Source: Octopus vulgaris (lineage: Eukaryota). From it: a stretch of 64,000 nt of DNA. The position numbers and the translations under genes were made by a program. Position 1 is the first letter of the stretch. Each line of letters starts with the position of its first letter. The notes beneath the pieces were generated by a model. That model was not told the origin of the DNA. It saw only the letters and a list, made by a program, of their open reading frames with translations, and ran no database searches. Location: assembly GCA_951406725.2 (NCBI GenBank), contig OX597829.1:50902001-50966000 (forward strand). The letters run 5' to 3'. Positions 17,651 to 58,700 of the stretch are shown here, piece after piece.

Positions 17651-18110
17651 AAGTTAATAATAATAATATTAGGGAGTAAATCCAAACTTACAGGGAAAAA
17701 TTAGATTTAGGATTAAATCCAATTTTATAATATAAATATATATTATATTAGATTAGAGATAAAACCACTATTAGGCAAATCAAACAGTGAAAATCATAAG
17801 CCAATACATAGAAAAAATTAATTAAAAAATATAAAATATAAATATAAAAAATATAAAATATAAAATTCCAAATTAAAATATTGAAATTAAAGTTAAAATT
17901 TAAAAAATTATTTATTTAAAAAATTATTTAAATAATTTAAATTATTTAAATAAAATTAAATATTTTTTAAAATTTTAACTTTAATTTCAATATTTTAATT
18001 TGGAATTTTATATTTTATATTTTTTAATTAATTTTTTTCTATGTATTGGCTTATGATTTTCACTGTTTGATTTGCCTAATAGTGGTTTTATCTCTAATTT
18101 AATATAATAT
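17651..18110. mobile_element. AT-rich fold-back element in (TA)n (family of 6398-6730, opposite orientation)
   Basis: AAAACCACTATTAGGCAAATCAAAC arm and its reverse complement; (TA)n on both sides. Confidence 0.75.
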
Positions 18111-18589
18111 ATATACACACATATACATACAGAGTGCTTTTAATGTGACACCATCTCCAGTATTTTTGCATGGCATCAGCACCCACACCAATGCTTTTTA
18201 TGTGGCATCTTGGTTTTAGGATCTCAGTTCTGTTGTGGTGGGCAGCAGATCTTCACATATTTCAGTCCTTTGTCATCTCCCTTATAAGGCTCAGTGTTTT
18301 GAGATTGGCCTTCAGTTCTTCGTCCTGTGTCTTCCTGGGTCTCCCTCTTCCACAACATCTTTCCACTTTTAAGTGATTGCCACTTCTTCATGCAACTGTC
18401 CTCATCCATCCGCATCACATGACCAAACTGTCTTCTCTTTTGAACACAGCAACTAATTCCTCCTATGCTCAGCTTCTCTCACCATACACCAATGCTTTGT
18501 TGTACATGTACGCTGATATCACGCATCCAGCGAAGCATATCAGCTTCCTTCCTCTCCAACCTACAAATACATATTATATAGATGCACAT

Positions 18590-26314: not shown

Positions 26315-26983
26315 GAAGGCGGCGAGCTGGCAGAAACGTTAGCACGCCGGGCGAAATGCGTAGCCGTATTTCGTCTACCGTTACGTTCCGAGTTCAAATT
26401 CCACCAAGGTTGACTTTGCCTTTCATCCTTTCGGGGTCGATAAATTAAGTACCAGTTACACACTGGGGTCGATATGATTGACTTAAATTCGTTTGTCTGT
26501 CCTTGTTTGTCCCCTCTGTGTTTAGCCTCTTGTGAGTAGTAAAGAAATAAGAAACGTTAGCACACCGGGTGAAAAGCTTAGTGACATTTTGTCTGTCTTT
26601 ACGTTCTGAGTTCAAATTCTGCCGAGTTCGACTTTGCCTTTCATCCTTTCGTGGTAGATAAATTAAGTACCTGTTACACACTGGGGTTGATCTAATCGAC
26701 TTAATCCGTTTGTCTGTCCTTCTTTGTCCTCTCTATGTTTAGCCCCTTGTGGGTAATAAAGAAATAAGAAACGTTAGCACACCGGGTGAAAAGCTTAGAG
26801 ACATTTTGTCTATCTTTACGTTCTGAGTTCAAATTCCGCCGAGTTCGACTTTGCCTTTCATCTTTTCGTGGTAGATAAATTAAGTATCAGTTACACACTG
26901 GGGTCGATATGATTGACTTAAATTCGTTTGTCTGTCCTTGTTTGTCCCCTCTGTGTTTAGCCCCTTGTGGGTAGTAAAGAAAC
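26315..26983 (+). mobile_element. Tandem trimer of Nin/Deu-domain-like SINE
   Basis: Units about 26315-26550, 26551-26767 and 26768-26983; units 2 and 3 start at GAAACGTTAGCAC. Confidence 0.85.
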
Positions 26984-27020
26984 ATATATTTCATTGGCTA
27001 CCTCTGATACATATCTATGT

Positions 27021-27908
27021 AGGTAGGTGGCCCTGCTCGATCTGTAGAAAAGGGGTAGGTAGAAACTCCATAAAATGTACCCAGTGTAAGCTATGGACGC
27101 ATAAGAGGTGTAGCAACATCAAAGGAAGATTAATTGAGAAGATAGCTTTCATGTGCAGCAGATGCACAGGGGCAATAGACACCACACACACTCAGAAAAC
27201 AGATTCCATCACACTCCAGGGGCAGAAACTAGAAGTAGTTGATAGTTTCCGCTACCTAGGTGACCAAGTTAGTAGTAGGGGTGGATGCTCAGAGAGTGTC
27301 ACCACTAGAATATGAATAGCCTGGGCAAAGTTTAGAAAGCTTCTACCTCTACTGGTGACAAAGGGTCTCTCGCTCAGGTTGAAAGATAGATTGTATGATG
27401 CATGTGTGTGAACTGCCATGCTTCACGGTAGTGAAACATGGGCTGTGACTGCAGAGGACATGCATAGACTTGAAAGAAATGAAGCTAACATGATCTGCTG
27501 GATGTGTAATGTCAGTGTGACCTGCTGTGCATGAGGAGACCTATTGAGTCAAGTACATCAACATCAAAATAAATATCAAATGGAAATTGTAGTTGTGTTA
27601 CCTGTGCCGGTGGCATGTAAAAGCATCATCCGAACTTGGCCAATGCCAGAACCGCCTTGACTGGCTTCCGTGCTGGTGGCATGTAAAAAGCACCAACCGA
27701 TCATGGACGCTGCTAGCCTCCCCTGGCACCTGTGTCATGAAAAAGCACCCACAACACTCACGGAGTGGTTGGCATTAGGAAGGGCATCCAGCTGTAGAAA
27801 CTCTGCCAGATCAGACTGGAGCCTGGTGCAGCTTCGTGGCTTCCCAGACTCCGGTCGAACCATCCAACACGTGCTAGCATGGAAAGCGGACGTTAAACAA
27901 TGATGATG
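27021..27908 (+). mobile_element. 5'-truncated RTE LINE with PHD-like finger, internally deleted
   Basis: GRWPCSICRKGVGRNSIKCTQCKLWTHKRCS...CSRC, EVVDSFRYLG, MLHGSETW; family 3' UTR and (TGA)n tail. Confidence 0.85.
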
Positions 27909-27925
27909 TATATATATATACATAC

Positions 27926-28024
<99 letters not shown>

Positions 28025-28168
28025 TAAGAGAATGGTCACTATGTGGCTCATTCTAGCACTAGAAAATCCAAAAGGTTTCAACCACAAAAATACATGTTTC
28101 CTATGAAAGTCAGTACGATTGTTAGCTCACACGAACAGGGCAAATAAAAATAACAAAAATACAGATTA

Positions 28169-28249
28169 TTTTGGGACAATTGTTTCGCTATTAATGAATT
28201 AAATGTAATTTTACTTACAAAAAACCCACTTGTAGCTCCTCAGCCAAAA
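28169..28249 (-). ncRNA. Intact minimal type I hammerhead ribozyme (inverted copy)
   Basis: Reverse complement of 28464-28544. Confidence 0.85.
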
Positions 28250-28463
28250 CTATCTGGATGAAATCCACTCAATCACACGCCAGATTTTACCATAACGATA
28301 AATACACGTGTGGTTCAAATGTAGTATTTGTTTCCGTGAAAGTTTGGCGTGCTGTTGGTAAGGGCATTTGAATTATAACGTCGGATGTAATCAATTGAAC
28401 CACACGTGTATTTATCGTTATGGTAAAATCTGGCGTGTGATTGAGTGGATTTCATCCAGATAG

Positions 28464-28544
28464 TTTTGGCTGAGGAGCTACAAGTGGGTTTTTTGTAAGT
28501 AAAATTACATTTAATTCATTAATAGCGAAACAATTGTCCCAAAA
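28464..28544 (+). ncRNA. Intact minimal type I hammerhead ribozyme
   Basis: Stem I TTTTGG/CCAAAA, CTGAGGA 28470-28476, stem II GCTA/TAGC, GAAAC-AATT-GTC (palindromic stem III), cleavage after 28538. Confidence 0.85.
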
Positions 28545-28827
28545 TAATCTGTATTTTTGTTATTTTTTATTTGCCCTGTTCGTGTGAGCTAACAATCGTA
28601 CTGACTTTCATAGGAAACATGTATTTTTGTGGTTGAAACCTTTTGGATTTTCTAGTGCTAGAATGAGCCACATAGTGACCATTCTCTTATATTTATTTTT
28701 GTATAAAATATTATAATATATTATAAAATATTATAATAATCCAGGTTTCTCGAGGCACTGGGCCACTTGGTGTTGAATAGATATGCTATTAAATTAGTAT
28801 CTAATTCTCTCACCCTTATTAATTAAT

Positions 28828-28858
<31 letters not shown>

Positions 28859-28873
28859 GTATGTGTATATATA

Positions 28874-28904
<31 letters not shown>

Positions 28905-30437
28905 ATGTGTGTGTGTGTATACATATATATGTGTACACACAAAGTATAGGGTTTAGTTCACAGGATATCTAAACGATTAGGTACGCTAGGTAAATGCTGT
29001 AACGGATTACTGGGGCTCCAAGGTAATAGCCGAGACGGTAGTTACGGAGCCATAACAGATATCCGATGCAGCAGATATATAGTTGTTAAACAGGACATGA
29101 AACATTAAGGCAAGGAAAATACCTCAAGTCATATACATTTTTATTATAGAGAGAAATTTAAAAAATCTTGCTTGTACATAAATATTATAATCTGACAGTG
29201 AATATAAACAAATGGATGTTTAGACATAAAAAATATATTTATAGCTATCATTTGGTTAATGAGTGAGAGAGAGAGAAGAGGGTGAGAGAGAGGGAGGAGT
29301 GAAAAAGACAGACTAAAATAGAAGATATTGGATGGAGGTGGGAGAGGTGGGGGTATAGTGGGGGGCAAGGCAGATTTCTATCCTTTTTAGGGTTCTTAAG
29401 GATTTTAATTTTCTTTAATATTTTTATAAACTTTTTTTATTTATTTATTTTTTTTACTGGTTTTAGTCATCAGGTTGTGGCCCTGCTGGAGCAAAAGCTT
29501 TGAGGTTTAATTGTTAGTTGTTCATATTGATGTTCCCCACCCTTCACCTCTCAGCATTCATTTCGTTCCGGTGGTACCTTTATTGAATTCTCTTTGCTGA
29601 ACTGTTAAGTCTACTAAAGTGAAACGGTGGCTAGCCCTTCAACGAAGTGGTACCTCAGCACAACCATTAAAGATTCAGTCAAACAAACCAACCCCATAGT
29701 TTTTTTAGTATTTATTCCATCAGTCTCTTTTTGCTGAATTTGCTAAGTTACAGGGACATATACAAACCAACACCAGTTGTTGAGGGCAAACAGAAGTGCA
29801 CGCGTGCATACACACACATACTAACTTAAAAGCTGCCCCATTGGGCAGTTTTTAAGCTAGCTCCTATAGATGGCTTTTCATTGGGCTCTGGGCCAACAAT
29901 AACACTTCGTGCTTTGAGTACATATTAAATTTTATTAAACTTGACCAATATTTTTCAAGCAATGAACAATTTTCATCAAAACAATGATATAATTTGGAAC
30001 TTATTGCAAAGCTGCATGATAAACAACATTTTTTGTTTTCCCATTCCAAGAAGGAGGGAGTACATATTTTTTTCTGTCTAATCTCTTCTTTCTGTTGATT
30101 GTTTTCAACCATCACCATCACCTGTACCACCACCATCGCAACCAAAACTGCCATACAAACATCATTCAGACTTCTGACGCCACCAGCATCAACACCTTTG
30201 ACTTCGTCGCCTTCTCCTCCACCACTACCACCACTGTCTTTCACATCCCTTACTATCACTGTCATGCTTGACCGCCTCAGCTACCACCGTCACCATCGCC
30301 TCCGCTTCTATCACACACTGGGGTCGATTTCTTCAACTAAAGGCGGTGCTCCAGCATGGCCGTAGTCAGATGACTGAAACAAATAAAAGAATTACATTTG
30401 ACAGAGTAATTGAATGCTGAGAGTGTCACCCATACCA

Positions 30438-31803: not shown

Positions 31804-32654
31804 GTTGACCCCAGTATTTCACTAGTGTAGTGGTTCCCAGCCTGGGGTCCATGGACACCTGATGGTCCATAAAGGTAGTACTGGATGTCCATGAACTAAA
31901 TTCAAAATTTCATATATACATCATCATCATCATCATCATCATTTAACATCTGTTTTCCATGTTGGCATGGGTTGGGCGGTTCAACTGGTGTCTGGGAAGC
32001 CAGGAGGCTGCACCAGGCCCCAATATGATCTGGCTCTATTCTACAACTGGATACCCTTCCTAATGCAAACCACTCTGAGAGTGTACTGAGTGCTTTTTAT
32101 ATGCCACTGGCACAGGGGCGAGAGGGGCTAGCATCGACCACAATCTGATGGTGCTTTTTACGTGCCACTGACATAGAAGCCAGTCAAGGTAGCACTGGCA
32201 TTTATATATATATATATATATATGTTTTGTGTGAGCGTGTACGTATGTAGACGTTATGAATGCAGGTGATTTATGTCTATGTATTGTGAGAATAAGGTTG
32301 CATGTATTTTTTATCTTTTATCTTTTTTCCTACCTATTAGAGTAAATTCCCTTTTATTCAATGATTTTTTTTATGGCGTCTATTGTCATAATAGCTTATG
32401 AGAATGCATCATAGCTCTTAACTCCGGCATTTGAGACTCTGAGACCTATTAGGACAACTTATTGATTGTCCTAAACTACACACACATACACACACTAGCA
32501 TAGCTAGAGTGTGTGCCACCTAGGTTGACCCTTCTGTTTGCCACCCCCAGATCCCACAAAGATACAATTCCTATACAAGACCCAGAAGTGCCACCTGAGG
32601 TGGACTCCCTCCCTACTAGCTATGCTAATGTCTGTTATTGCCCTGGATTGATCA

Positions 32655-32935
32655 TAAACTGCACATATTTCTTTGGTTGCTTGTGAAGCATTTTTCCCTT
32701 TACAGAAAAAGAGAAGCATCAAGTGCCAAAAATGAACTTTCTTATCTTCCATTTTAAAGGGTTACAGAATTAACACAGGTTATAGGAACATAAACCTTCT
32801 ACCATGAAAATATAGCTGAAACTGTGCTCTAAATGAAGGTGTAGTCAAATCCTATTTTATGGACTCAACCATGTTCTAAAATAAGTTGAAAGGTAAGCTA
32901 CTATAAATCGGCATGAACTTTCCGGACAGCCCAAT
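32655..32935 (-). mobile_element. Mariner transposon 5' fragment
   Basis: MEDKKVHFWHLMLLFFCKGKNASQATKEICAVYD mariner N-terminus, plus TIR TATTGGGCTGTCCGGAAAGTTC; not seen in the right arm. Confidence 0.8.
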
Positions 32936-38101: not shown

Positions 38102-39893
38102 TGTATATATATGTGTGTATGTGTATGTGTGTTTGCATGAGTATATTTCCAGTTCTCCACATAAACCTCCCCGAGCTGTTTGCCGTTTGTTAACCTGGGA
38201 GATTATTACCTCCCTTGGAAACAAAGGGTGAAGTTTGGGAAGAATAAGGGCATCCAGCTGTAGAAAAGTCAATCCCAACTCTCATCTTGACCAATGCAAA
38301 CATTGAAAAGTAGACATTAAAATGATGATGAGGAGAGAATAAGAGATTTGCCATGAGTGAAAAGAGAGAGACTCCTTCAGCAAGGGTGGTGGGTGATGCT
38401 TTTATAGCAAATAACAGATACAAAATGGAAGATTTGTATATGAATTCCTATATCTATAATATTTTCCTGGCTAAATTAGATCAGGCTAAACAAAAGATTT
38501 TTTAACCTGTTAGTTGGTCTGAACTGTTGATGACTCAAAATGGTCAGTAAAAGAATAGAACTTACCTACATATAACAACAGAGTCTCGTAAATTTCTTAA
38601 TAACACCAAGTACAAAGGAACTTACAGAAAAATCTGAATATCTGGCTAAGAATCCAGAAAATTATTCGCTTCAAACCAATGACAATGTTAATAACAAGAA
38701 GAATTCTTGCAAAGGTACCTCAAGTGCCAGGTAGTCAATCAGCAAAAAAAAAAAAAAACAGTTCTGTTGATGGACTTCAACTCAGTTTCCATTTACTCAT
38801 TCCACTTCACACAATGCTTCTATAAAAGTGTAGAGTAATCCGTCAGATTAACATAATGTTTGTTTTTCTGTTAACTTATAGTAAAACAATTTTAACAGCT
38901 ACCTCTGATGAGCACAGTGTTACATAATCAGAATGCTACCTGCATTCTGTTGAACCCCAAGTGCGAAACCGATTGGTAAGATTAGCAATAATGGATATAT
39001 AATATTGTACACTTTAACACACAGACATACACACACACACACACACACACAATATATAGAAGAGGTTATAATCCAGGTTGCGTCCTCGAGCAGCACATCA
39101 GCATGCCCAAATAAATCAAATGTATGTATATGGATGTTTGATTTTGAATGAAATATACACAGCATTTGAAATTTCTTGTGAATTCTATTTGCAGAGTAAT
39201 TAGATGTCAAAATAGAGAGAAGTTTCATGTATTTCTAATTATATTTAAAATGCACCAAACTTTTCCAGTCTTCAGTTTTGATATATATATATATATTGTT
39301 GGCATCCTTTTGTCTCAGGAGACAATGGAGTTGTGCATAAACTAATCCAGTCTAGTTTTTACATTTCGCTTCCTCTCCAGTTTTGCGTAGGCCTGGGCTA
39401 GATGTAAGAAAATCCTGAGTAGAACAATCGTCAGGATTCCTCTCTCAACCTTGCTGATGTAGTCCAAAGGAGTGCAGAGCATTCCATTTGGCACCAGCTT
39501 GGTTGCAGGAACTGCCAGTAGAGTGTCGAGTCGAACACTAAACCACCTACGGGGCTCCACTCCAGATTTCTTTGAAGGTTGTCTCCTTTCCGTAACCCTG
39601 GATAGGGGCCCATACCGGATACTGTCAGCCGGAGCCAGCTGAGCCTGGGACTCATGTCAGGTAGGGGCGTCACTCCCTGAAGTAGTGAAGAAAATCGCAA
39701 CCCACTACCTAGATATATATGTGTGTGTTTGTGTATATATATAAATATAAATATATATATATATTTATATATATGTATACACACCCACACACTCATGCAC
39801 ACTTACACACACTGTAACAAAGCCATAATAATAATATTTGTCTCAAGAAGGCCTCACATACATACATACAATTATATATTTATATATATATTG

Positions 39894-45903: not shown

Positions 45904-45907
<4 letters not shown>

Positions 45908-46282
45908 GTTTAGCAACGAATTGCCTTACCACAGACCGAATTTAGAAATAGCAGTCAAAGAGTTATAGCTATTTCTTCTACTACAAAGGGAGATCTCAGT
46001 AAAAAAACACAGCAATTGGAAGGCAGACACAAACAGGTACCTGTTTGTGTCTGCCTTCCAATTGCTGTGTTTTTTTACTGAGATCTCCCTTTGTAGTAGA
46101 AGAAATAGCTATAACTCTTTGACTGCTATTTCTAAATTCGGTCTGTGGTAAGGCAATTCGTTGCTAAACCCTTTATTGCTTAGTATTACTTAAATTTTCC
46201 TCGAATGAGGCTTTTACATGCCGAAGACTACTTGGTGTAATTGATAATTATTCCAAATTAATTAATTTCACCCTTCATTATT

Positions 46283-46286
<4 letters not shown>
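45904..46286. mobile_element. Spacer-less 270-bp palindrome plus extension, family of 8596-9160, in (TA)n
   Basis: Arms 45904-46038 and 46039-46173 centred on GGTACC; long arm ends TTCACCCTTCATT. Confidence 0.9.
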
Positions 46287-46320
<34 letters not shown>

Positions 46321-46516: not shown

Positions 46517-47866
46517 CAGGGGTTGCACAAAATAATGGAAACACCTTAAAATTTCAAACAAATTTATTTTAATATGGGGTATACAGCTTGAATTCTATGA
46601 GGTATGGACTCGTACAAAGTTTTAATTGATTCCAAAGGAATTTTTGTCCATATTTGAGCTAAAACAGTCTCCAACTCTTGTAGTGATGATGGTGGAGGAT
46701 ATCGACTCCTTAATTGTTTTGTAGTGTGATGGAGGAAAAGGACAACAGAAAAAGAAGCAACAGGAGAAAGAAATACAAAAGACCTTACCTCGGCAAAATC
46801 AGCGGTCACTCTCACGAAGTCAACACGTCTTGTCGCTCTTCGCACTTTGCTGGAATTGACCACATGTGCTTGCTGACCACATGTGCTTCCTCCCACTCAT
46901 GCCCCTTTCACTCTTCCGCCGACCCCTGCAAGCCTTACTTCCGCCCACCTCATCTGTCATCCTCTCCACCAACACCACATAGCTCATCACAGCCCATAAC
47001 ACTGCTAACATCACATGTTTTTCTAAAATGCACCATAAATGTTCAATGATATTGAGATCTGGGGACTGTGGTGGCCAGATAAGATGTTCAACTTTACTAG
47101 AATGTTCTTAGTGTCATTCAGTAACAACTTTAGCTGTGTGAATTGGTGCATTATCATCCTGAAAGACTGTGTTTCCCTCCAGAAACACTTCCATAACCAC
47201 AGGATGAATTTCAGATAAAATGCTTGAATAGACTTAACTATTAATTCTGCCATGAAGGGAAACCATTGGGCTGGCAGATATCCAAGATATATCCCCACCC
47301 CTCATCCCCAAATCATTATAGATCTTCCTCCGTGTTTAACATTTGGAAAAAGGCAGTCTGGGCCAAATGCTTCTTTTAGCTGTCTTAACACATATATTCG
47401 GCCAGTGGTTGGAAATAGGGTAAAAGATGACTCATCTGAGAAAATAACATTCTTCCACTGCTCTAGGCGCCAATTCTGTAGGTTTTTACTCCACTCGAAA
47501 TACTTTGCAATGTTTGTTTTTAAAAGTAGTGGGTTTTTTTTATTGCAGCCCTCCCTTGAAATCTGGCTTTGAGCAGCTTCTGGCAAACAGTTTTTGTGGA
47601 AACTGGGTTCTCAAGGTGGTCATTAAGTTCTGCAGTAATTTTGGGAGCTGTACTTTTGTGATCCTTTCTAACAATTCACATAAGAGGCCAACAATCCCTA
47701 TCTGAAAGTTTGGGTCTTCTTCCAGAGTTTTGTTTCAACAAGGAGGTTTTTCCCTCTTTCTCAAAGGCTGTCATTACTTTCGAGACAGTACTTCTTGATA
47801 CACCAAACATTTCAGCTGTTTTCATTATGCTATCACCTGCCATACGAGCACCAACAATTTGACCCC
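46517..47866 (-). mobile_element. Tc1-family transposon relic with DD36E catalytic spacing
   Basis: TIR CAGGGGTTGCACAAAATAATGGAAACACC; GQIVGARMAG, VIFSDESSF, FQDDNAPIH...WPPQSPDLNIIEHLW; contains stops and frameshifts. Confidence 0.9.
46720..47015. mobile_element. Solo LTR inserted in the Tc1 transposase
   Basis: TG...CA termini and 5-bp TSD TGTTT (46715-46719 / 47016-47020); removal restores LWCILEKQLRSRYPPP. Confidence 0.85.
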
Positions 47867-48016
47867 TATGTGTGTATGTGTGTGTGTATTTGGATTTTTA
47901 AAACAGGTATTGAAAATATATATCAACAGTTGCTATTCAATACTTGAATATCAGTATATGCTTGCATGTGCATCGTGTGCACATTGCATTTATTTATGAT
48001 TTTTCTTCAATTATAA

Positions 48017-55709: not shown

Positions 55710-58700
55710 CAATTTAGTGTTTAAACCAGCCAAAATTAAGTCCCCTTTATTTTTTTAAACCAGCCAAATGGCGGTGCCCCAGCATGGCCACAGCTCGTGA
55801 GCTGAAACTAGATAAAATAAAATAAATAAATAAATTTTTTAAATCAGGCCATATCCATCTGCTCTTTGAAATTGCTAAAAAATTAAACAAATCACATTGA
55901 ATTCTCGTAGCTTTAAGATAATGTGAGATGAAGCTTGTCTCGCCTTTATTCAAGTATAAATATTGTGAAATTGTTTAGACCACATGGTTTTTCAACATTT
56001 GTATATTTTACACTTTGCTTTTTGTACTGGAGTTTTTTTTCTCTAGTTTTTGAATGTGTTGTGCTGCTTTGCAGTGGTTTGTTTGTTTGACATATATACA
56101 TACATATATATACATACATGTGTACATACATACAGTGGTTTGTTTGTAAGAGGAGAGATAGGTTAGTAAAACCATGTCTGTAGAAGACTGTAGCTTCTCA
56201 GACATATCACTGTTGGATGAGGAATTGTTGGAGGCGGTCTGGAAGATGGACGATCAATTGAAGAAGAAGAGGAATTTTGCCGATGTGGCAAAATGCCAGG
56301 AGAAGGAAATGGCTATTGGAAAATTGAGAAGGTATAAAGATTTATTAAGTTGGGATGGTTTTGAGGTGAAGCTGTGTGAGAGGTTGGAGAGTTCCAAATG
56401 TGGAAGAAGAAACCAGAAAGGAGGAGAGATTAGTAGCAATGGAGGACAAGTGGGAAAAGTCACCGGAAGAAAGAGAAAGAAGGCAAGTGTTTTGAATTCT
56501 AAACACCCCACCCGCACCCTCTCAGACCCACCCTCCCTCTGCAGACACCAAGCCTACCCATTCCCCTCCGACACAAATACAAAAGAAAAAGAAAACAAAT
56601 ACACAAAAAACCCTCAAATTCTCTCCAGCCAGGCGGAAAAGAAAAAGGAAAAAAAAGGATGTATTGTAATAATGTATGACAATTCAAATGAAGAATTATG
56701 TAAAGAGATAAGGACATGGAAGAATGGAAACAGAGGGGTATGACAATGTTAAGAGGTGGCACCGATGTGTGGTAACCATTGAGGAACAAAAGGTGAGGTT
56801 GACAAGGTATGGAAGTGGATAGGATTGGTGGGAAGTGGAACTTGATTGGAACAAACTACCAGACCTTCTAACATATAAACAATTGCTGGAAGAGCATGAT
56901 GTGGACATTTTGGAAGGATCAATGTATAAGGGGTGTTAAAAGGCAGAAATGGAGATGCTTGGAGGTGGGGCTGGATATTTTCATTGCATTTTTCTTGTTT
57001 TCATTATCATCCCATGTTCTCATACGTTGATTTGATTTTTTTTTGTTTGTATTATGTCCCCACATGTTATGTATTGTCCTGTCAGTGTTCATCCTTTGTA
57101 TATAATAAAAAATCAATGGTGTTTTTTCTAATGTTTGAAGAGAAGTCTGTACCTTAGTTTTTAATGAAATGGTGTCAGCAAGTAGCGATTCTGACTTTGA
57201 AGGTTTTACTCTGGAGGATATAGAAAATATAATGAAAACAAGAGTATTTTGTCTTCAGATGAATCTGATATCGATATTAGTGAATATTCATTGGATGAGG
57301 AAGATTTTGAGAATGAAAGTGATAAAAATGAAAGTGATGAAAAGGATATTGTAAACATGGCAACATGGTCAAAGATTACAACACCAATCACTATTCCTGA
57401 TTTCACAGAAAACACTGGTCCACAACACAATTTACCTCCTGATGCTCAACCATTCTACTATCTACTTTCATTTTTACTGGAAAGTTATTTGAAACTGTTA
57501 AGGAGGAAATGAACAAATATGCGCAACATATAATTTCTGGTCTTGGAAGAAACGATCCACTATGGCAGCCAAGTTATACCGTGGAAATGAGAGCATTTTT
57601 CACAATCAATATTACGTTTGGTCTTCAACAGCTTCCTCGACTGTGGAACTACTGGAGTCCTGATACAAGGTATGGCAATCCATATATCTCAAGTATAATG
57701 TTGAAGACAAGGTATTCAAAAATATCTCAGTATTTACATTTAACTGATTCTGCTAATGCCCCCAGAAAAACAACCCAAACTACAATCCCCTGTATTGTAC
57801 AGTATGCCCTGTAATTGATTTACTTTTTAATAGTTAAAAACTGTGTATCTACCTGGGAAAAATCTCAGTGTAGATGAAGCCATGATAGGCTATACAAGCA
57901 GAGTACATTTTTGGCAGTACATGCCTGCCAAACCCACTAAAGTGGGTATCAAGGTATGGGAATTCCGTGAATCAGACACTGGATATTGTTTAAACTTTGA
58001 TGTTTACACAGGTAAAAAATATAATAGAAACAGACCATATCACTATCAGCACCGACACTTCTATTTTGACTGGGTTTTTTTCCTTCAGTGGCTTTGACAA
58101 AAAAATCTTGCCTGTGTAAGTACTTACAAGTGCAGTACTGTTATGGGCAACCGTAAAGGTTTAACCCATGACATGAAAACAAAATTTTAAAAAAAGAGGG
58201 GACATTTTATAAATGCAAAAGGAAAATTTATTAGCTACTGCTTTCAAAGATAAAAGACAGATTTCATATGTCTTCTAATGAACAACCTGGTGTTTGTGCT
58301 GAGGGGAAACCCCTAGTGAATATTTGTTATTACAAATATATGGGTGGGGTTGATAAATCTGACCAGTATCGGGCGTGTTACCCAGTTGGTTGACCCGGGA
58401 AGAAATGGTAGAGGTACATTTTGTGGGTTTTAATTAATTTAACTATAGTTAATTCATATACTGTATATGTAAAAAAGCCACAATGTACCTCCGCCACCAA
58501 AAGACTACGACCACTTGAAATTTGTAGTTGACATCACATCTCAGTTACGTGAGGGCTTTTCTTCTAGAAAGCACGGAACTGGGAGAAAAGCAAAATTAAG
58601 TGAGGTGGATGTCAACAGAGAAAATATTGACATTAATAAAGTCGAAAAGATAAATGGAAGGAAAAAAGTTTGCAGACAGTGTTTGCTGCAAAAAAGAAAA

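Follow-up and report, generated by a model that had tools for sequence, protein, structure and literature searches.

Penelope-like retroelements (PLEs) and retrozymes are the closest described systems for the locus analyzed here. Insertions of PLEs are 5'-truncated and microsatellite-biased, often have an adjacent inverted copy, and carry a one-sided tail of 30-40 bp as well as hammerhead motifs in their pLTRs (PMC8557442). The head-to-head orientation is the commonest PLE arrangement, and palindromes are found at the junction (PMC3846280). In Schistosoma, dual hammerheads were reported on opposite strands 100-700 bp apart, and most motifs were linked to truncated PLEs; the PLE hammerheads were not cleaved as monomers and were cleaved weakly as dimers (PMC4209133). 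Both target strands were reported to be cut and extended during PLE insertion, with two internal reverse transcriptase (RT) start sites bounding the tail, while the ribozyme was protein-assisted and dispensable for insertion in vitro (PMC11167929). For Octopus vulgaris, 336 recent PLE insertions in 31 families were described in a paper whose main text does not include hammerheads (PMC13282606). Retrozymes are built of short tandem monomers that each carry a hammerhead (PMC7229834, 10.64898/2026.07.22.740005). Their stems I and II are of canonical size and their stem III is short and palindromic (PMC7229834), and in a preprint they were argued to derive from the pLTRs of PLEs (10.64898/2026.07.22.740005).

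The locus at 28016-28826 was analyzed within a window of 64 kb, which is the whole stretch of O. vulgaris DNA under study. The structure is very probably the result of one recent insertion by PLE machinery into a (TA)n microsatellite, in which a 5'-truncated copy of 508 nt on the + strand (28319-28826) stands head-to-head with a 303-nt inverted copy (28016-28318) of the same element end. The left arm of the inverted repeat (28016-28318, 303 nt, - strand) is the inverted, 5'-truncated copy and is without a tail. The right arm (28395-28698, 304 nt, + strand) is the pLTR-like part of the main copy. The two arms were found to pair in exact runs of 173 bp and 135 bp, with 0 substitutions and a single indel corresponding to a difference in homopolymer length, A5 at 28146-28150 against T6 at 28563-28568. 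The original prediction of an apparently perfect 303-bp inverted repeat was therefore correct for substitutions but not for the homopolymer, and the repeat is nearly perfect. The 76-nt spacer (28319-28394, + strand) and the (TA)n flanks were both found where that prediction had placed them.

The flanks consist of (TA)n/(TATG)n microsatellites at 27909-28015 and 28828-28906. The left one is the likely insertion target and doubles as the 3' end of a broken LINE (26917-27900), for which the best named relatives were Octopus bimaculoides proteins (67-88% identity). The right copy extends beyond its arm by 128 nt (28699-28826, + strand), and the left side has no mirror of this extension, which ends in a predicted GGUG/CACC-closed hairpin followed by CCCTT. 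An 8-nt palindrome is present where the inverted copy begins (28391-28398). The two hammerhead motifs, at 28162-28256 on the - strand and at 28457-28551 on the + strand, face outward, away from each other, and therefore the two copies are head-to-head.

The motifs were assigned to type I hammerheads. On the + strand, stem I is formed by 28457-28469 and 28539-28551 and comprises 7 bp, one A.A mismatch, and 5 bp, giving 12 bp. The core consists of CUGAGGA (28470-28476), GAAAC, and a GUC triplet ending at C28538, after which the cut is predicted. Stem II is GCUA/UAGC (4 bp) with the G10.1-C11.1 pair and a loop of 42 nt, and the palindromic stem III is ACAAUUGU. In the left copy, C3 is at 28243 and C17 is at 28175. 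The features that had been read from the letters alone, namely CTGAGGA, GAAAC, GTC, a self-complementary stem III, and a stem I of about 12 bp, were all located in the motif. The description of two intact hammerheads likewise holds for the sequence, with the full core and helices I and II present. Pair probabilities of 0.97 to 1.0 were predicted for helices I and II in the isolated motif, and the folding z score of 28455-28555 was -4.2. A strict descriptor matched 3 hammerheads in the window and 0 in each of 40 shuffles; a relaxed descriptor gave 6 matches in the window versus a mean of 0.07 and a maximum of 1 in 100 shuffles. Among the listed variants of the family, the hammerhead core changed only at the free N7 position, and this constancy would fit selection on the motif in the family, though not at the present copy.

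No stable helix III was obtained for the monomer, where stem III was 2 bp with a pair probability of 0.01. When two motifs were cofolded, an intermolecular stem III of 8 bp was formed, with a self-duplex energy of -6.4 kcal/mol. In these models, the 2-bp stem III points to cleavage that would depend on dimers. The full core, the G10.1-C11.1 pair, the short palindromic helix III, and the predicted need for a dimer are all shared with metazoan PLE type I hammerheads (PMC4209133), and opposite-strand pairs of hammerheads 100-700 bp apart are likewise described in that report. No hammerhead was matched in Rfam at the gathering score (0 matches) or among 46 matches at E<=10, possibly because loop II is long and a duplex surrounds the motif. 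The miRNA matches from Rfam were generic hairpin and microsatellite matches below the gathering score and were rejected.

Membership in the PLEs is likely by analogy of architecture and is unproven by sequence. The locus was filed as PLE type on architecture because the coding partner (RT/GIY-YIG) was not found, Pfam giving 0 matches to RT or GIY-YIG in 208 reading-frame pieces of the window and none in the truncated 508-nt copy. The 46-aa piece before the hammerhead returned nothing by word search or by HMMER against 1.84 billion proteins, and an antisense frame of 66 aa (28318-28515) had no Pfam match. The frame at 28320-28457, which we had presumed to resemble a GIY-YIG C terminus, was dropped as such a candidate since it gained no support from the word search, HMMER, or Pfam.

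The architecture itself is close to that of endonuclease-bearing PLEs (Penelope/Poseidon and Neptune), with which the locus shares the 5' truncation, the inverted head-to-head copy, and the one-sided tail (PMC8557442, PMC3846280, PMC11167929), as well as a terminal-repeat hammerhead, here of type I, an AT-rich or microsatellite target, and a short palindrome at the junction. The one-sided 3' tail lies between two alternative ends (28705 and 28819). The octopus locus differs from the endonuclease-bearing PLEs in the length of the tail (128 nt versus the published 30-40 nt) and in that no RT/GIY-YIG coding sequence was found. No target-site duplication, an optional feature of these elements, was readable because the microsatellite on both sides would hide one. 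Long inverted arms in a TA context would also be seen if a hammerhead happened to lie in the terminal inverted repeats of a MITE or a fold-back DNA transposon. The terminal repeats of such an element should be symmetric, however, whereas the 128-nt one-sided tail renders this element asymmetric. Furthermore, the family sequence continues past the spacer, in none of the compared records is the family a fold-back in its own right, and a hammerhead is a mark of elements that are RNA-based. An origin of this kind is hardly credible.

The assignment of spacer, arm, and tail to one element was deduced from a survey of the family, in which 28319-28826 was compared with the records of 4 (X1, X4, X14, and X21) of 24 listed runs. 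The stretch was matched by 999 contigs in X1 and by 646 contigs in X4, with all 30 bins covered in both, and therefore the spacer, the arm, and the tail constitute one very abundant family (summed contig depth is not a copy number). X14, which is presumed to be RNA, held 36 family contigs. Part of the stretch was present in 20 of these 24 runs, and the 20 bear 7 organism labels. X21, which is raw DNA of 1,934 million letters, gave no true match, just 12 poor matches to an AT-rich patch. The organism label of X21 is the same as that of several family-holding runs, and more than one organism may be grouped under it. When metagenome contigs and viral contigs were scanned for exact 30-nt motifs, 0 matches were obtained in each. 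No publication describing these octopus hammerhead families was found by title or start of abstract in a search that most subscription papers fall outside, and the repeat library of O. vulgaris in PMC13282606 may already hold the family.

Record 16 of X4 and a loose end in X14 contain family sequence upstream of the spacer on the + strand. Since the family runs on in this way, the spacer was assigned to the truncated 5' part of the right copy. The ends on the other side were also informative. At 28705, family contigs pass into (TA)n (5 in X1 and 4 in X4), and this recurrent end is 7 nt from the mirror (28698) of the end of the left arm, which accordingly stops at the first 3' end of the family. 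The second end was observed in one X14 contig, whose match to the stretch stops at 28819 and which reaches (TA)n after eight more letters.

A mechanism with two nicks and two start sites accounts for the geometry of the locus, the one-sided tail, and the alleles shared by the arms. A PLE RT/GIY-YIG protein would nick both strands of the AT-rich (TA)n target, and each nick would prime cDNA that starts at one or the other of two internal sites, either on the same RNA or on a sister RNA. The distal start site would give rise to the tailed right copy and the proximal site to the tail-less left copy. Both cDNAs would stop early and would be joined head-to-head at their truncated ends. The hammerheads at the locus would be passengers, their likely job being in the parent RNA, as dimers. 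The locus itself is an ordinary copy of a published insertion type, and it exemplifies how a single event would yield one arm with a tail and one without from the two RT start sites known from in vitro work.

In a filtered listing of joints from the four runs, none changed strand at 28319/28395, and no listed record spans the inversion junction or the whole stretch. An artifact of assembly or polishing might account for the left arm or for the perfect arm identity. Structures of this type trouble assemblies (PMC8557442), and the single difference between the arms is a homopolymer length, which is typical of sequencing error. This explanation was deemed quite improbable as the flanks are unmirrored, the tail is one-sided, both outer ends coincide with family ends, and structures of this build occur elsewhere in the window with several levels of divergence. 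One such build is an older head-to-head palindrome at 2548-2940, which belongs to a family other than that of 28016-28826 and has two outward hammerheads of a minimal type (C3 at 2636 on the - strand and at 2852 on the + strand), a spacer of 7 nt, and arms diverged by 14.7%.

For a genuine insertion of PLE type, the arms provide an estimate of age. With 0 substitutions in 303 sites, the 95% upper bound of arm divergence is 0.98%, corresponding to approximately 1.4 million years by the calibration that PMC13282606 quotes. Judged from the arm sequences, the insertion is probably young. The earlier claim of youth is thus plausible, with a bound below 1% compared to 14.7% in the older pair, but is qualified by gene conversion or polishing, either of which could also give identity.

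The alleles of the copy were informative on this point. Among the rows listed, the copy carries a minority allele, defined as over 70% other letter in both X1 and X4, at 14 of its 508 sites, with 10 in the 304 arm sites and 4 in the 204 sites of spacer and tail. This comparison was made from a table of 24 positions taken from the 40 rows listed, beyond which there were 6 more, and none of the 15 rows left out had a majority other letter in X1 or X4. CpG decay was rejected as the source of the minority alleles, fitting just 1 of the 14. The 14 sites exceed the number expected for a very young copy made from a single master, and all 10 of the arm alleles are mirrored in the other arm. Had these alleles arisen after the insertion, 12-20 differences between the arms would be expected, while 0 were seen (P of 7e-6 or less). 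These numbers would be produced by an older insertion with arms that were kept or later made identical by arm-to-arm gene conversion or by DNA-level fold-back of one copy, and a fold-back of mixed SINE and microsatellite DNA is indeed present in the window at 4474-5541. A variant source serving as template for both arms would, however, give the same numbers. In addition, the end of the left arm is no more than 7 nt away from a recurrent family end, a position unexpected for a random fold-back, and the divergence of the pair at 2548-2940 indicates that homogenization is not general. An older insertion is considered improbable. Because the older pair diverged freely, the mirrored alleles favor a template that would be a variant subfamily or species form over arms homogenized by conversion or polishing.

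The original prediction also held that one transcript would include both a ribozyme and a long double-stranded RNA (dsRNA). The whole hairpin has a folding z score of -58 and an energy of -572 kcal/mol. On each strand, there is one sense hammerhead, located downstream of its own perfect complement, and for this reason the ribozyme and the hairpin are predicted to exclude each other. Across six lengths of read-through RNA, the predicted mean probability that the hammerhead pairs with the opposite arm was 0.955-0.999. The long hairpin is thus predicted to switch the ribozyme off in such RNA, with up to 99.9% locked, and the two features would not coexist in one transcript. In the sense RNA, the spacer was predicted to pair with 28446-28457, lifting the probability of stem I from 0.01 to 0.96, and the right motif is predicted to be freed only in RNA starting within the spacer. 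The left motif was predicted to fold poorly in outward transcripts (stem I probability of 0.11-0.28).

According to these models, the locus would be a possible ADAR or siRNA substrate only if it is read through. Read-through RNA, if it exists, would be a likely ADAR substrate by analogy to many other octopus inverted repeats. None of the listed family-holding runs was recorded as RNA, which has no bearing on expression. A>G changes were found at 18 places in X14 versus 8 in X1 and X4. This excess is not evidence of editing at the locus because the X14 contigs represent other copies of the family, under another organism label and without matched DNA, and the RNA status of the run is a guess.

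These data bear on the functional reading that the locus yields an active ribozyme and a long dsRNA and is of special regulatory interest. The intact motifs and the very stable hairpin are consistent with it, as are the exceptional hyper-editing and near-perfect dsRNA potential of octopus (PMC5625713) and, at face value, the A>G excess in X14. It is nevertheless very improbable, given the predicted mutual exclusion of hairpin and ribozyme and the 2-bp stem III; comparable PLE monomers were uncut and their dimers cut weakly (PMC4209133), and the anole motif required protein (PMC11167929). The locus had also been put forward as the best experimental candidate in the window. This ranking was not sustained, as the locus is a single copy from a very large family whose architecture has been published, and the monomer that had been proposed for cleavage has the short, improbable stem III. 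The locus is instead useful as a marker of PLE activity, one that is likely to be recent and may be polymorphic.

The template RNA used by the PLE machinery could be of a different kind from a complete PLE. The locus shares a type I hammerhead, low GC content (32%), the lack of any ORF found, and a high copy number with animal non-LTR retrozymes (PMC7229834, 10.64898/2026.07.22.740005), though it differs from retrozymes in that no tandem array is present. The parent might accordingly be a non-autonomous, retrozyme-like monomer of approximately 570 nt moved in trans by PLE enzymes, which is compatible with the preferred explanation and changes only the template RNA. This was suggested by two other hammerhead families in the window that have a shared terminal motif and are ORF-less units. 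One is a partial tandem at 5549-6380 with a period of 566 nt (5549-5814/6115-6380), a decayed hammerhead core at 6128, and no long ORF, ending in (TA)n. The other (C3 at 8894) is represented at 8596-9160 and 45904-46287 and has a unit of approximately 582 nt, deduced from the summed module distances of 8596-9160 with 46039-46287. The modules of the present element (228 and 119 nt versus 262 and 102 nt) are similar in length. The retrozyme-like stems, with I and II of canonical size and III short and palindromic (PMC7229834), and the preprint deriving retrozymes from PLE pLTRs (10.64898/2026.07.22.740005) are also consistent with such a monomer. On the other hand, no tandem repeat of the element's own family was found in the window, no tail-to-spacer joint was present among the joints listed, and the neighboring-family units of 566-582 nt exceed the roughly 170-400 nt of published animal retrozyme monomers. 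The body of the element aligned unconvincingly with the other families (47% mean column identity), and an alignment of five hammerhead-bearing bodies was uninformative. A monomer of this kind is a serious possibility to which we give somewhat less than an even chance.

Further structures in the window are related to these families. The segment at 45904-46173 is a perfect 135-bp palindrome (0/135 differences) with no spacer, followed by a tail into (TA)n; its arms are identical to each other, yet they differ by approximately 10% from the copy at 9 kb. The tails of three hammerhead families have CTTGGTG...ACCCT in common and can fold into a GGUG/CACC-closed hairpin. In 4 sequences, 0 of 11 pairs of this terminal hairpin had a two-sided change, and the GGUG/CACC stem appears conserved in sequence but is not proven as a structure. 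The wider lead from the window is one of density, as it contains 6 hammerhead motifs by the relaxed descriptor in 64 kb along with several palindromes of PLE type. Should much of the near-perfect dsRNA in octopus come from these families, a transposon mechanism would be linked to the known hyper-editing. A broader and rather unlikely proposal is that octopus genomes carry undescribed, very high-copy, non-autonomous hammerhead PLE satellites of approximately 570 nt that target (TA)n, have tails of 85-128 nt, and terminate in a conserved GGUG/CACC hairpin. These satellites would routinely form perfect head-to-head palindromes and would be a main source of the near-perfect dsRNA behind hyper-editing, the palindrome silencing the element's own ribozyme.

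Several minor observations were made in the window. The segment at 5723-5899, part of the tail of the 566-nt unit, is repeated exactly over 177 bp in inverted orientation at 173-349, at a distance of 5.4 kb. The large fold-back at 4474-5541 has approximately 1.3% arm substitutions and a 19-nt center and lies directly upstream of the 566-nt unit; it may represent host DNA that was carried along in that unit's insertion event, or else a palindrome formed at the DNA level. A hammerhead motif with a degraded stem I is located at 38905 within 38895-39110, where 39060-39096 resembles the start of the 128-nt tail. AT-rich palindromes of one further family, with arms diverged by approximately 1%, adjoin (TA)n at 6393-6645 and 17736-18114, and no hammerhead core was found in either. 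Short inverted repeats at 8307-8595 and 9567-9650 (61 bp exact and approximately 25 bp) enclose a (TA)n tract. The letters CCCT(T/A) stand just before the AT-rich run at the family ends 28812-28817, 9150-9156, 46270-46275, 5890-5895, and 6368-6374, and presumably recall the complement of telomeric repeats. No host gene domain was found in the 208 reading-frame pieces of the window. Broken pieces of DNA transposons (Mos1-type HTH, DDE_3 with HTH, and DDE_Tnp_1_7) and an inverted duplicate of 2.2 kb with approximately 88% identity were identified at 32507-32761, 46823-47897, 57443-58094, and 34894-37108/54959-57313.
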